Shown: piece by piece, positions 4,528-33,145 of the stretch
How the letters are laid out: each line of letters begins with the position of its first letter
Numbering within the stretch: position 1 is the stretch's first letter
From: a virus
Taxonomy: Duplodnaviria; Heunggongvirae; Uroviricota; Caudoviricetes
Length of the DNA stretch: 33,145 nt
Direction: 5' to 3' (one strand)
Virus record (IMG/VR): IMGVR_UViG_2534681702_000003
Location: 1-33,145 of that record
The notes under the pieces: generated by a model
The model's input: the letters and a program-made list of their open reading frames with translations, nothing else
Database searches by the model: none
Told to the model about the DNA's origin: nothing
Position numbers and translations under genes: made by a program

Positions 4528-4585
4528 AAAAAGGGCAGCAGAGCAGTCACGGAGTAAAACTGATACCACCAAACGTCACCAGAAA
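4528..4585 (-). ncRNA. dicF: DicF small RNA
   Basis: Minus-strand sequence UUUCUGGUGACGUUUGGUGGUAUCAGUUUUACUCCGUGACUGCUCUGCUGCCCUUUUU matches recalled DicF, ends in U-tract, lies immediately upstream of dicB. Confidence 0.8.
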
Positions 4586-6955: not shown

Positions 6956-7186
6956 ATGAAAAAATCAGAAGTATTAGGCTATTTTGGCGGAGTTGTTAAA
7001 ACAGCCGCAGCTCTAGGAACGTCAAAAACCACAGTCAGCATGTGGGGGGAAGAGGTTCCGTGGAAATGGGCGTTGCTAATTCAGGCAGTCACTGCCGGGG
7101 CGCTCAAATATGAGTTACACATACCGACGGTTGTCATTCCCGGTTCTGATCATAATCCGCCTTCTAACCAAGGGGGGGATTCATGA
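6956..7186 (+). CDS. Cro-like HTH regulator (YdaS-like)
   Basis: 76 aa from ATG 6956 (GGAG RBS); first gene of rightward operon opposite cI. Confidence 0.65.
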   Translation: MKKSEVLGYFGGVVKTAAALGTSKTTVSMWGEEVPWKWALLIQAVTAGALKYELHIPTVVIPGSDHNPPSNQGGDS

Positions 7187-7608
7187 AAATCAAGCATGAA
7201 CACATCCGCATGGCGATGAATGCCTGGGCGCGTCCTGATGGCGAAAAAGTTCCAGCAGCTGGAATAACCCAGGCTTATTTTGAGTTGGGTATGACGTTCC
7301 CAGAACTGTATGACGACAGCCATCCGGAAGCCCTGGCTCGCAATACCCAGAAAATTTTCCGCTGGATAGAGAAAGACACCCCTGATGCAGTTGAAAAAAT
7401 TCAGGCGTTGTTACCAGCGATCGAAAAGGCAATGCCACCTTTGCTGGTGGCCAGAATGCGCAGCCACAGTTCAGCTTATTTTCGGGAGCTGGTGGAGACG
7501 CGGGAGCGACTGGTGAGAGACGCTGATGATTTTGTCGCAGTGGCAATCGCCGGTTTCAATCAGATGAACCGTGGTGGCCCGGCAGGAAATGCTGTGGCAG
7601 TGCATTGA
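7183..7608 (+). CDS. YdaT-like protein (proposed CII functional analogue)
   Basis: 141 aa starting MKIKHEHI..., as recalled for YdaT; start overlaps cro-like stop. Confidence 0.55.
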   Translation: MKIKHEHIRMAMNAWARPDGEKVPAAGITQAYFELGMTFPELYDDSHPEALARNTQKIFRWIEKDTPDAVEKIQALLPAIEKAMPPLLVARMRSHSSAYFRELVETRERLVRDADDFVAVAIAGFNQMNRGGPAGNAVAVH

Positions 7609-8790: not shown

Positions 8791-9213
8791 GTGGCAAAAG
8801 TTTTTACACAAGAAGAGCGGGAAAAAATTAAAGGGCAGGTTGTTGAACTCGTACGCCAGAGTGGGCGCGAGACGTTACGACAACTGGAAACTAAAACTGG
8901 GGCAACAAGATATCTGATGAGCGTTCTGGCCAGAGAGCTGGTTGCCAGTGGCGATGTATACAACTCTGGTTACGGGTTATTCCCGTCTGAACAGGCGCGT
9001 AAGGACTGGCAAAATGCCCGTAAAAAGCTCTCAAGGGCAAAGCTGAAGAAACCATCTGCGGTTGATCCGGACCTTATCTGGTCATTACCTGACGGAGAAA
9101 TACGTCGCTACGACAGGCGTCAGAACATAATCTGTCGCGAGTGCCGGAAGAGTGAGGTTATGCAGCGAGTGCTGGCGTTTTATCAGGGTAATTTTCAGGA
9201 GGTGATGGCGTGA
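8791..9213 (+). CDS. Hypothetical protein (140 aa), replication-module position
   Basis: GTG start with AGGAGG RBS; no family recognised. Confidence 0.55.
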   Translation: MAKVFTQEEREKIKGQVVELVRQSGRETLRQLETKTGATRYLMSVLARELVASGDVYNSGYGLFPSEQARKDWQNARKKLSRAKLKKPSAVDPDLIWSLPDGEIRRYDRRQNIICRECRKSEVMQRVLAFYQGNFQEVMA

Positions 9214-9505
9214 GAGTGAGAGTCTATATCGCCGGTCCAATGACCGGGTATAAAAATTTCAACCGTGAGGCGTTTCACAATGCGGAAGAGGAACTGAAAC
9301 GGGAAGGGCATACCGTTTTAAATCCGGCTGTGCTTCCGGATGGGCTGACACAGCCGCACTACATGGATATTGCATGGCAATGATTCGTTGTGTGGATGCG
9401 ATTTACATGCTGAAAGGCTGGCAGCGGTCAGCAGGTGCTAAGGCAGAACTGGCGCTGGCGGAGAAACTGGGGCATGCAGTTATTTTCCAGGAGGAGGTAC
9501 AGTGA
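9210..9505 (+). pseudogene. DUF4406-like (nucleoside 2-deoxyribosyltransferase-like) gene split by a frameshift
   Basis: N-part VRVYIAGPMTGYKNF...HYMDIAWQ stops at 9381-9383; C-part MIRCVDAIYMLKGWQRSAGAKAELALAEKLG... continues in another frame from 9380. Confidence 0.5.
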
Positions 9506-9777: not shown

Positions 9778-9891
9778 TCCAAATCTGAATAATTAAATCC
9801 AGCACTGTAAATAAAATTTAATCCTTAACCGGAGGGATTTCTGCACCCTCAGAACATCAGGAGGCCGCCCGAAAGGGCGGTGGAGATAATA

Positions 9892-10416
9892 ATGGAAATA
9901 ACTAAAGAACGATTATTGGAAATAGCAAATCTTAGTGAAAGGGCATTAAGTGATGGGAGGATTATTTCTCCTGATGCTTATGAATCAGTTACAAGTATAG
10001 AAATAATAACGATGGCCAGGATGCTTCTTGGTTGCCTCAAAAAAGAATATAAAAAAAAGGTGGATAGCAATGCTAATATATATGATATTTTGGACAGTTG
10101 GGGGGCTTGGGCTGCAGCTGGAAATAGTTCTATCAACTGGCAGCAAGTGGCTGATAAATATAAAGATGTAGTACCTCATGGTAAGAAATTACGCCGTCAG
10201 TGTGGCAACGATGAAGGTCGTATGATTGATACCTGCATGTTGAAGCTTAAACAATATAGAATAGATGACTATGAGTTAATTATCGCTCATTTTGTTATAG
10301 GTATATCTTTGCGTACAATAGCACGAAGGTACAAATGTTCAGATGGAACAATAAGAAAGAATATACAACTTACAATGGGAGTATTGTTAGGATTGTCTTT
10401 TTATGTGCAATTATAG
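9892..10416 (+). CDS. Antitermination protein Q-like (phage 82/QuuD family) with about 60-aa N-terminal extension
   Basis: Motifs LDSWGAWAAAG, RRQCGNDEGRMIDTCMLKLK, CSDGTIRKNIQ align with recalled QuuD (WGAWAA, CCDDDAMIICGCMARLKK, CSDGYIGKRLQ); GGTGGAG RBS; GNRA hairpin CCGCCCGAAAGGGCGG at 9864-9879. Confidence 0.65.
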   Translation: MEITKERLLEIANLSERALSDGRIISPDAYESVTSIEIITMARMLLGCLKKEYKKKVDSNANIYDILDSWGAWAAAGNSSINWQQVADKYKDVVPHGKKLRRQCGNDEGRMIDTCMLKLKQYRIDDYELIIAHFVIGISLRTIARRYKCSDGTIRKNIQLTMGVLLGLSFYVQL

Positions 10417-10421
10417 ATATA

Positions 10422-10901
10422 TCACATGAGCCTTGTTATGTCCTTTAGACGCGACCAGGTAGTATAAAATTTTTTAAATGTAATAAGCAGGAAAAAAATT
10501 CCCACTTGGAGTAATAGTTGGGCATATGTGTGCTCGTCGGCATCTTTTACTAGTGGGAATTTAAACTTTAGTGTATCAGGGAAAAATAATAAAATGATAA
10601 AAATAATACAAACTGATAGTAACCATCCCATAGTGGAGTGCATTTCTTCGGTCAGTTTTTTCAAATAACCAGTTTTTCCTATATTTCTAATTAGCGTATT
10701 ATCTCTAGCTGAAGCAATCAAGGTAAGCGAACCTAAAACAAAGCCAAATAATATCCCAGAAAATGTAGAAACGGCCGAAGCGATTGGCTGAATTTGTGCA
10801 AAATTTAGCTTTGCAGAAAGAGGCCATGCGATGATACAAAAAACAACAGAGGCTAAATTATAACCATAACTGTACAAAGTTATCAATTTCCCCTTTTTCA
10901 T
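10422..10901 (-). CDS. Four-helix membrane protein (159 aa), RexB-like architecture
   Basis: Four hydrophobic segments (about aa 16-30, 40-64, 90-107, 126-143); GGAG RBS; 15 bp downstream of the 304-aa gene. Confidence 0.75.
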   Translation of the reverse strand: MKKGKLITLYSYGYNLASVVFCIIAWPLSAKLNFAQIQPIASAVSTFSGILFGFVLGSLTLIASARDNTLIRNIGKTGYLKKLTEEMHSTMGWLLSVCIIFIILLFFPDTLKFKFPLVKDADEHTYAQLLLQVGIFFLLITFKKFYTTWSRLKDITRLM

Positions 10902-10916
10902 ACCATCGCTCCAAAA

Positions 10917-11831
10917 TTAATCAACTCTTTGATTGGCTACTCCAAAGTATGCCTTCAATTCATCATCTTTACTATCTTTTGCAAGAGTTAAGGCGCTCCA
11001 AATGCTGCCAACTAATGGATACCTACCTCCAAGTTCAACATCTGTGTAGTAGACTAATTTGTCTGCTACAAGATCGATAGGATGCTGTACACCGGTCTCA
11101 ATGTCTTGGGTTTCTAGTTTAAGTTTTTCAACCTCAAAAGTCTCTAGTGTTTCTTTAAAGGCTCTTTTTAGTTGAGAACCTAGATAGCGAGATTCAGGAT
11201 CTTCAGAACGACTATCCCCACGTAATGTAAGATTTACTTTGGCAGAATTAGTACCATTTAGAGTGGCTATCAATGCATTGTTGAAGTTATGTTCAATATC
11301 CTCATATAGTTGCACATTCTTTGGCCGAGCGATACCGATTTCTAGAGTTTTGATTCGAACTTCATTACGCATCAACCACTTTAAACTACTGGTCTGAATG
11401 ATGGGATTAACAGTTGTATTTTGTGAACTGTTGGAAAGATATTTACTTAATAGCAACCAGCCATAACAGAGTCTGTTTCGTTGAATTATTAAAACTGAGT
11501 CTTGGGTATAAAAATGAAAATAAGCTTTTTCTAATAAGTTTTCATTGATTTCAAGTTTAATTTCTCTTTCTTCACCTCCGGCTACAGCAACATGAGGGAG
11601 ATTATTGGTTCTGTGTTTTCCTATAACTCCCCTGAAACCATAGTCGGTTCTTTCCATGAAGCGCATTTCAACTAGTTTATTTCCTATTTTACGTACAGTT
11701 TTGTCTCGGCCTTCGCTGTATGACTCAAAAATTTTTGAAAAAACAGCTTCAGGTGAATTAACTCCTGCATTTGTATCAGTGCTTATAGTGTGACATTGAT
11801 AAAAATCGAAGAAAAAGCGCTTGCTAGCCAT
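10917..11831 (-). CDS. Hypothetical soluble protein (304 aa), first gene of two-gene operon
   Basis: Uninterrupted low-GC ORF; no recognised domain; upstream AT-rich 270-bp promoter region. Confidence 0.75.
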   Translation of the reverse strand: MASKRFFFDFYQCHTISTDTNAGVNSPEAVFSKIFESYSEGRDKTVRKIGNKLVEMRFMERTDYGFRGVIGKHRTNNLPHVAVAGGEEREIKLEINENLLEKAYFHFYTQDSVLIIQRNRLCYGWLLLSKYLSNSSQNTTVNPIIQTSSLKWLMRNEVRIKTLEIGIARPKNVQLYEDIEHNFNNALIATLNGTNSAKVNLTLRGDSRSEDPESRYLGSQLKRAFKETLETFEVEKLKLETQDIETGVQHPIDLVADKLVYYTDVELGGRYPLVGSIWSALTLAKDSKDDELKAYFGVANQRVD

Positions 11832-12154
11832 TGCAAAAATTTCCTGTAAAAAATAATTACATACTTAAGATACTACAAAGAATAATGCGTACGCAAAATT
11901 TTTTGTTGAGTAGAATATGTTCGCGGGGTATTTTTCGTTAAGATATAATTACCATGGTAACTTTTGCGTTGGTAATGCATTATGTGGTGGAGAAAAAGAG
12001 AGAGTCTTATCTTTAAATTATCGCCAGCCTATATGACTATATGAGTAGTATTTAGATGGGAAATTGTTGAGTTATTGAAAGGAACCATAACCTTTATGTA
12101 AAATTACTGCGGGTGCTTGAGGTTATCTGTCTCAGGCATGCCACCAAAAGGCAG

Positions 12155-12232
12155 ATAGAGAAAAGCCCCAGTTAACGTTACGCGTCCTGCAAGACGTTTA
12201 ACATTAATCTGAGGCTCAATCTATGAACGGCA
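12155..12232 (-). ncRNA. Predicted Sok-like antisense RNA
   Basis: Inferred from hok/sok organisation; candidate minus-strand promoter TTGCCT-17-TAACCT inside mok 5' end; boundaries approximate. Confidence 0.3.
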
Positions 12233-12435
12233 AATCTAGGTTAGCCTCTTACGTGCCGAAAGGCAAGGAGAAGCAGGCTATGAAGCAGCAAAAGGCGATG
12301 TTAATCGCCCTGATCGTCATCTGTTTAACCGTCATAGTGACGGCACTGGTAACGAGGAAAGACCTCTGCGAGGTACGAATCCGAACCGGCCAGAAGGAGG
12401 TCGCTGTCTTCACAGCTTACGAACCTGAGGAGTAA
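12223..12435 (+). CDS. Mok-like in-frame leader ORF overlapping hok
   Basis: 70-aa ORF whose last 51 codons are hok; same arrangement as mokC/hokC. Confidence 0.5.
   Translation: MNGKSRLASYVPKGKEKQAMKQQKAMLIALIVICLTVIVTALVTRKDLCEVRIRTGQKEVAVFTAYEPEE
12280..12435 (+). CDS. Hok/Gef-family type I toxin
   Basis: 51 aa MKQQKAMLIALIVICLTVIVTALVTRKDLCEVRIRTGQKEVAVFTAYEPEE, near-identical in pattern to recalled Gef/HokC; AAGGAG RBS. Confidence 0.85.
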   Translation: MKQQKAMLIALIVICLTVIVTALVTRKDLCEVRIRTGQKEVAVFTAYEPEE

Positions 12436-32878: not shown

Positions 32879-33145
32879 ATGCTGCCGCAGCATAGCGATA
32901 TTGAAATAGCCTGGTATGCTTCGATACAGCAGGAGCCGAATGGCTGGAAGACCGTCACCACACAGTTCTACATCCAGGAATTCAGTGAGCATATTGCGCC
33001 ACTTCAGGATGCTGTAGATCTGGAGATCGCAACGGAGGAAGAAAACTCGTTGCTGGAAGCCTGGAAGAAGTATCGGGTGTTGCTGAACCGTGTTGATACA
33101 TCAACCGCACCTGATATTGAGTGGCCGACTTCACCTGCAGAGTAA
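32879..33145 (+). pseudogene. Tail fibre assembly (tfa) 3' fragment
   Basis: 88-aa ORF ending ...[53 protein letters not shown], matching recalled lambda Tfa C-terminus; too short for a complete tfa. Confidence 0.6.

Follow-up and report, generated by a model that had tools for sequence, protein, structure and literature searches.

Genomic context of the gene pair

The window (the whole stretch of DNA that was analysed, 33,145 nucleotides) is a lambdoid prophage of E. coli with a GC content of ~50%, whose insertion adjoins potC. Two genes, here named A and B (Table 1), lie within it as a stand-alone cassette, in antisense orientation relative to the genes around them, with a Q-like gene on one side and a hok/sok locus on the other. 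Their structure is the one that a sequence-only reading of this DNA had described, namely two minus-strand open reading frames (ORFs) set apart by a short gap and each provided with its own ribosome-binding site (RBS): as read from the sequence, GGAG precedes the gene B ATG by 7 nt, and AGGA(A), at 11845-11841, precedes the gene A ATG by 9-10 nt. The same reading had located the genes in an AT-rich block beside hok/sok, and both observations hold. Specifically, the GC content is 0.34-0.37 over positions 10001-12000 versus about 0.47-0.55 in the flanks, and the hok/sok neighbour is real, as indicated by the Rfam sok match at 12111-12285 and by the annotation of hokD.

Table 1. Features of the A-B locus in the window
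Feature	Position	Strand	Description
Gene A	10917..11831	(-)	304-aa ORF; soluble DUF6731 protein, putative cytoplasmic sensor/activator
Gene B	10422..10901	(-)	159-aa ORF; four-helix inner-membrane protein, putative channel/pore effector
A-B spacer	10902..10916	(-)	15 bp; holds the gene B RBS GGAG (10912-10909)
AT-rich region upstream of gene A	11832..12110	(-)	presumed site of the module's own promoter

The region upstream of gene A includes a 32-bp palindrome at 11875-11906. A promoter scan of the minus strand of this region (11832-12110) found no strong sigma-70 consensus, so that we infer a promoter of the module without assigning it to a located site. A strong-looking promoter site at 10886-10857 was discarded, as its position falls within gene B and it probably reflects noise of the AT-rich sequence (11 sites found, 8.5 expected).

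Both genes occur at an identity of at least 99% in 19 of the 5,426 complete E. coli genomes, in every case as a single, chromosomal copy per genome, and they are annotated in this species as "DUF6731 family protein" and "hypothetical protein", respectively. In the comparison with the Klebsiella homologue (amino-acid identity of 80% for A and 75% for B), gene B has a dN/dS of 0.06, and gene A has a dN of 0.13 with a saturated dS; this substitution pattern indicates that the two genes are real and under purifying selection. In related lambdoid phages, the slot of the pair is occupied by unrelated small genes.

The product of gene A: family and predicted fold

The protein coded by gene A had been considered devoid of a recognisable domain, a statement that does not stand, as A matches Pfam DUF6731 (PF20505) over residues 1-268 with a score of 47.5 bits (E 2.3e-12), above the curated gathering threshold of 27 bits. 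The RefSeq label of A is likewise DUF6731 family protein, A matches phrog_7651 (E 9e-142), and DUF6731 is common to all 42 homologues of A that were found and to all 38 that were aligned. No match to A is present among the PADLOC models (v2) or in NCBIfam, hydropathy detects no hydrophobic segment, and profile and structure comparisons reveal no recognisable catalytic or toxin domain. The UniRef label "DUF4747" is attached to one homologue (P0013) and was not reproduced by hmmscan; A and its aligned homologues (38 members) have no match to DUF4747 (PF15931) at E up to 1. In the literature searched, no mention was found of DUF6731, of PF20505, or of the RefSeq accessions of the two proteins, nor were experiments on any DUF6731 protein.

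The AlphaFold2 model of A, built on 38 homologues, has a pLDDT of 74, with residues 1-143 and 260-296 modelled at high confidence and residues 147-253 at low confidence. The domain boundaries of the model fall at 1-143, 147-253, and 260-296, and its elements follow one another as a beta-sheet-rich domain, an inserted four-strand/four-helix domain, a return strand, and C-terminal helices. RexA is made up of a globular domain that is split (residues 1-139 plus 248-279) and a dimerisation domain (residues 143-234) (PMC11077077), and both the boundaries and the order of the elements in the model of A parallel this published layout. Moreover, the top structural match of A, among 48,164 chains, is uniquely RexA. 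On the basis of the model, A is predicted to carry a RexA/RdgC-type fold, that is, a split globular domain with an insert. The most conserved stretch of the family, residues 71-102, contains many invariant positions and corresponds to a low-confidence surface loop of the model.

At the sequence level, neither the Pfam RexA (PF15969) nor the PADLOC RexA model matches A at E up to 1. The alignment of the A family by hhalign, with RexA represented either by a single sequence or by a three-sequence profile derived from the neighbours of RexB homologues, yields E values of 0.4-0.8 and hence no signal. Direct BLASTP of A with lambda RexA and of B with lambda RexB gives no match, PDB sequences searched with the A profile give none either, and the PDB sequence searches with the single proteins and the profiles of A and B returned nothing useful. 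In the structural comparison of both proteins with viral models by Foldseek, B matches a Sbash protein of 165 aa (TM 0.54), and RexA and RexB of lambda are not named among the matches listed. In the same search, a single metagenomic phage, ctylc9, supplies both the top match of A and the second-ranked match of B.

The product of gene B: a membrane protein and its weak likeness to RexB

The AlphaFold2 model of B (pLDDT 79) consists of four long helices, at residues 3-30, 34-64, 79-106, and 126-158, with a short extra helix inside the central loop. The sequence-only reading had counted four hydrophobic helices; all four are present in the model, and with a Kyte-Doolittle cut-off of 1.6 hydropathy supports three of them. 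Residues 64-92, the central loop, are conserved and carry a net positive charge, and the positive-inside rule predicts that this loop faces the cytoplasm together with the N-terminus and the C-terminus. The most conserved stretch of the protein, QIQPIASAxSTFxGILFGF...ASAxDNTLIxNxxKTGYL, spans helix 2 and the central loop. B matches phrog_8552, and its length and its four predicted helices fit a RexB-type membrane component (four TM, about 140-165 aa).

The PADLOC RexB HMM matches B with an E of 0.0015, aligning residues 14-83 of the protein to positions 15-82 of the profile, and hhalign pairs columns 21-84 of the B family with columns 21-85 of lambda RexB (E 0.02, probability 2%); the Pfam RexB model (PF15968) has no match to B. 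The aligned region coincides with the most conserved stretch of B, across helix 2 and the central loop. The peptide LIASARDNTLIRNIGKTGYL of B, which had been likened to the RexB loop, belongs to the same region, the one aligned by both the PADLOC RexB HMM and hhalign. Taken directly, the likeness between B and RexB is weak (E 0.0015-0.02) and resides in hydrophobic helices, a kind of sequence in which spurious matches arise easily.

The relatives of B widen this comparison. The B-family profile found 153 clusters (at 50% identity) among 1.84 billion representative proteins, and the proteins of these clusters are mostly 135-165 aa long; the distant relatives that were looked up by cluster are unnamed proteins from metagenomes. 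The PADLOC RexB HMM is matched by 81 of the 139 relatives that were scanned (best E 6e-8) and the Pfam RexB model by 4 of them, and no defence family other than RexB recurs among these 139 relatives over the 5,027 PADLOC models. The alignment of the B superfamily to a true-RexB profile by hhalign reaches an E of 7e-5 and a probability of 63% (columns 27-90 to 21-85), and HMM searches connect the two families in both directions, from the B superfamily to lambda RexB (E 2e-7) and from the RexB HMM to B (E 7.5e-4). Each of these scores is modest and concerns hydrophobic helices, yet the matches run in both directions, keep the same register, and single out RexB; at the level of profiles, they suggest that B is a distant relative of RexB.

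The pair as a conserved unit

A homologue of B directly follows the homologue of A, on the same strand, in 39/39 loci examined, a set of genomes, metagenomes, IMG/VR contigs, and two deposited phages, each of which encodes an A homologue. The identities of the two proteins to A and B drop in parallel across loci (80/75, 55/52, 50/46, 42/36, and 32/31%), and the genes that flank the pair are conserved in none of them. Among Gammaproteobacteria, the hosts include Escherichia, Klebsiella, Rahnella, Photobacterium, Vibrio, Aeromonas, Pseudoalteromonas, Endozoicomonas, Marinobacterium, and Pseudomonas; the pair is also found in Geomonas (Desulfobacterota) and in a Saprospiraceae MAG (Bacteroidota), and the family thereby spans Gammaproteobacteria, Desulfobacterota, and Bacteroidota.

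The pair is carried by prophages and by other mobile elements, in varied positions. In Klebsiella prophages, it sits between Q and the holin/lysis genes, and in the E. coli phage cdtI a more distant DUF6731 pair (orf54/orf53) is found between the same genes; in a Mu-like prophage, the pair is located before the holin, and in one locus it adjoins an integrase. In the Pseudomonas phage AUS531phi, a cI-like repressor gene is followed by A and then by B, which reproduces the cI-rexA-rexB arrangement of lambda, and the B protein of this phage matches the PADLOC RexB HMM with an E of 3.7e-5. Outside prophages, islands inserted in comM, including those of Vibrio, carry the pair, once beside an MmeI-type restriction-modification enzyme, and an Endozoicomonas island combines it with AAA_15+HNH, Mrr, and NERD genes. 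The GC content of the module is below that of its flanks in 10/11 loci.

Comparison with known two-gene systems

Rex of phage lambda is the classic system that aborts infection by other phages and the oldest abortive-infection system known. The pair of the window shares with lambda RexA/RexB (PF15969/PF15968; PDB 8TWQ) the soluble-then-membrane gene order, the carriage by a prophage, and comparable sizes (304/159 aa versus 279/144 aa); the rexA-rexB spacer of lambda also measures 15 bp, which may be a coincidence. The likeness extends to the predicted fold and domain layout of A, as modelled, and to the four-helix build of B, whose second helix and central loop show a weak similarity at the profile level. 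Conversely, no similarity of A to lambda RexA is detectable in sequence, A belongs to a separate Pfam family, DUF6731, and the pair is not in an immunity operon behind cI but in a stand-alone antisense cassette. Moreover, in contrast to lambda, a putative function is assigned to the pair by analogy, within a family that spans Gammaproteobacteria, Desulfobacterota, and Bacteroidota.

Sucellos (SclA/SclB), from the V. cholerae superintegron, is a two-gene system with a RexAB-like predicted structure and no Pfam Rex match, in which both genes are required and SclB is a predicted membrane pore; its homologues are found mostly in enterobacterial prophages (bioRxiv 10.1101/2024.07.02.601686). This description fits the pair of the window, the comparison being one of descriptions only. 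Neither V. cholerae nor Salmonella contributes a protein to the 42 homologues of A or to the 8 genome loci, an absence suggesting that any relationship to Sucellos is distant at most, and the Vibrio homologues of the pair reside in comM-inserted islands, whereas Sucellos resides in integron cassettes. In P. putida, PP_5643 of the RexABpp pair (PP_5643/PP_5644) matches RexA by HHpred with 98% probability (PMC12894663), whereas A gives no RexA match, with shallow profiles only; RexABpp, like Sucellos, is set beside the pair by its published description.

Rex-like pairs are also known in actinobacteriophages, namely Sbash gp30/31, CarolAnn gp44/43, and Butters gp30/31 (DUF4747), which code for a soluble protein and a downstream four-helix membrane protein and for which heterotypic defence was shown experimentally (PMC6426596, PMC6426606, PMC7542560). 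The pair of the window shares this succession of a soluble and a four-helix membrane protein and differs in the lack of a DUF4747 match in A, in the host phylum, and in the size of the soluble protein, which is larger in the Sbash type (337-372 aa) than the 304-aa A.

Kiwa (KwaA/KwaB) and PDC-M18 likewise consist of two genes, including one for a small multi-helix membrane protein, and were both set aside. The pair has no KwaA/KwaB match in PADLOC, and its gene order is the opposite of that of Kiwa; the RexA-RexB order recognised from the sequence, and its contrast with Kiwa, are borne out by the soluble-first arrangement of all the loci examined. B matches PDC-M18B marginally (E 0.007), and A matches no PADLOC model, PDC-M18A included. 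PDC-M18 corresponds to system 4 of the P4 hotspot of Rousset, and the wording "distant analog of RexAB" of the 2021 preprint is absent from the published paper (PMC11754643).

A probable RexAB-type module and its alternatives

The predicted fold of A, the B-RexB profiles, the strict pairing, and the context, taken together, indicate that the pair is probably a two-gene RexAB-type phage-exclusion (abortive-infection) module, carried by the lambdoid prophage as accessory cargo. The sensor and small membrane effector proposed from the sequence are in keeping with the RexA-like predicted fold, the reciprocal B-RexB profiles, and the pairing. By analogy with lambda RexAB (PMC11077077), Sbash gp30/31 (PMC6426596), and P. 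putida RexABpp (PMC12894663), A would be a cytoplasmic protein, probably dimeric and DNA-binding, and the domain that corresponds to its four-strand/four-helix insert mediates dimerisation in RexA. A may sense an infecting phage by way of one of its proteins or of an intermediate of phage DNA and protein, and would then activate B; oligomers of B, in turn, would compromise the inner membrane, with depolarisation and loss of ATP, and the membrane damage would stop growth and abort the infection, providing the putative anti-phage phenotype.

The roles of the two proteins could instead be reversed, as in Butters: in a pair of Rex-like ancestry, the toxic or antiviral action would come from the soluble A, with B serving to sequester A until infection releases it. 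Butters gp30/gp31 are a precedent within the Rex-like group (PMC12894663), and the conserved loop 71-102 of A, a low-confidence surface loop, might serve in interaction or as an effector site; against this, the membrane protein is the effector in 4/5 Rex-like systems counted in that source, SclB of Sucellos is a predicted pore-former, the lack of a recognisable catalytic or toxin domain speaks against A as the effector, and the helices and central loop of B are conserved as strongly as A, which suits an active effector over a passive anchor. Such a reversal is therefore improbable. A similarly low probability is given to a housekeeping role, in which the RexA/RdgC-like A, with B, would tune the lysogeny-lysis switch, the recombination, or the lysis timing of its own prophage and leave other phages unaffected. 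Against this role, the pair is also carried by elements that are not prophages, namely comM-inserted islands and a chromosomal island where restriction and Septu-like genes lie next to it, and related lambdoid phages hold unrelated genes in the same slot; moreover, the phages that have the pair are of four unrelated types, and its neighbours and orientation differ in each, which is not what a core regulatory gene would show.

The vicinity of hok/sok, another membrane-toxin locus, and the carriage by many mobile elements would suit an addiction module of the toxin-antitoxin kind, with B as a small membrane toxin and A as its protein antidote, retaining the mobile element. This explanation is very unlikely, as neither protein has a significant profile match to toxin-antitoxin families, a 304-aa two-domain protein of RexA fold would be atypical as an antitoxin, and the homology points to Rex. 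Equally slight is the probability of a chance resemblance, in which no homology to Rex exists on either side and the two proteins are an unrelated alpha/beta protein (A) and a four-helix membrane protein of a generic kind (B): the missing sequence signal between A and RexA and the marginal B-RexB scores, when taken singly, would allow it, but two independent searches lead to the two halves of a single system (RexA as the unique top structural match of A, RexB as the only recurrent match of the relatives of B), gene order and size match Rex, and one relative sits behind cI as the lambda genes do. A generic transporter was considered and rejected.

Implications for Rex-type systems

The probable RexAB-type module adds to a known concept, since RexAB-like systems recognised by structure alone exist already (Sucellos and P. 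putida RexABpp). The claim that the system is undescribed holds as far as DUF6731 is without mention in the literature searched and PADLOC makes no call, and falls short in that structure-only Rex-like pairs have been published. For the specialist, the pair is thus no surprise; its use lies in annotating DUF6731 and in charting how broad the range of Rex-type systems is, as a testable function is offered for DUF6731 and for an unannotated membrane-protein family, both linked to Rex. Rex-type pairs also exist away from the lambda immunity region and appear to travel as two-gene cassettes in lambdoid, Mu-like, and other prophages and in chromosomal islands, over several phyla. As the PADLOC v2 and Pfam Rex models miss the pair, Rex-type systems are likely under-counted in inventories of E. 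coli and Klebsiella prophages.

More tentatively, DUF6731 proteins and their four-helix partners may form a distinct, unrecognised branch of a larger Rex superfamily, separate from Sucellos and RexABpp and with its own trigger specificity, read by the loop of A at residues ~71-102; we regard this as possible, at odds clearly lower than those of the RexAB-type module itself. If so, current defence finders would systematically miss DUF6731 pairs, and Rex-type abortive infection would be far commoner than the handful of described cases. What RexA responds to, and how it brings about the opening of RexB, is a 70-year-old question that a diverse set of RexA- and RexB-like pairs could help to settle, and the conserved loop of A and the central loop of B would be obvious targets for this purpose.

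Gene neighbourhood of the A-B module

The low-GC Q-antiterminator-family gene converges on gene B, the 159-aa four-helix membrane protein gene, with 5 bp between the stop codons. At the DNA level, the match to a Klebsiella prophage (73%) extends from window position 10069 to 11832; gene A, which codes for the 304-aa DUF6731 protein, gene B and the 3' portion of the Q gene were therefore inherited together as a single block. The Q equivalent precedes the lysis genes in Klebsiella and in phage cdtI. A second Q-like gene (DUF1133) is located in the same prophage, downstream of rusA, so the low-GC Q may be a remnant of recombination.

On the other side of the module, a 32-bp palindrome lies upstream of gene A and could be an operator at which a regulator acts on the module; the search for sigma-70 promoters gave no clear one in this region. 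The upstream region is directly adjoined by a complete hok/sok-type type I toxin-antitoxin locus that includes a mok ORF (window 12223-12435), the hokD annotation being derived from RefSeq.

Features of the window and of the compared loci (L001, RefSeq locus matching the window; L018, Pseudomonas phage AUS531phi; L026, phage cdtI)
Feature	Position	Strand	Evidence or remark
DicF antisense RNA	window 4533-4584	-	Rfam; near dicB
cro/cI-family gene	window about 6956-7199; L001 8535-8778		frameshifted pseudogene per RefSeq
DUF4406 gene	window about 9210-9505; L001 10789-11084		frameshifted pseudogene per RefSeq
Low-GC Q-antiterminator-family gene	window 9880-10416 (RefSeq start 9892)	+	Pfam Phage_antitermQ, E 3e-30
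Conserved stretch of protein A	residues about 71-102; window about 11526-11621
32-bp palindrome ACAAAGAATAATGCGTACGCAAAATTTTTTGT, centre GCGTACGC	window 11875-11906		44-75 bp upstream of gene A start codon
hok/sok-type locus	window 12111-12435	+	Rfam sok, 108.7 bits
Two phage-borne tRNAs	window 16528-16600 and 16701-16774	+	Rfam
IS009 RNA element	window 32902-33105	+	Rfam; near window end
Distant DUF6731 + four-helix membrane pair, orf54/orf53	L026 2983-4371		NC_009514.1
Distant DUF6731 + four-helix membrane pair	L018 3860-5144

Conserved loop of protein A

Conservation within the DUF6731 family is highest in the stretch GKHRxNDLPHAAVxGGxEREIxLxxNENLLEK, in which many positions are invariant. 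In the AlphaFold model of protein A, this stretch coincides with that part of the N-terminal domain where model confidence is lowest (pLDDT 51-66, falling below 50 at residues 82-84). This conserved, flexible loop is a candidate contact site for B, DNA or a phage trigger.

Related pairs in deposited phages

The distant pairs of cdtI and AUS531phi carry hypothetical-protein annotation only; the former is flanked by Q on one side and by methyltransferase and lysis genes on the other, and the latter is placed directly 3' of a cI-like repressor. In vB_EcoS-733R5 and 716R3, which are related phages of E. coli, the homologue is labelled “portal (connector) protein”, a suspected misannotation.

State of the prophage and RNA elements

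RefSeq marks two genes of the prophage as frameshifted, and DUF4406 is split in the window into two ORFs (9210-9383 and 9374-9505). This may be a defective prophage whose accessory cassette remains intact. Among the RNA elements, the two tRNAs are annotated as Ile and Arg in the RefSeq genome that matches the window.
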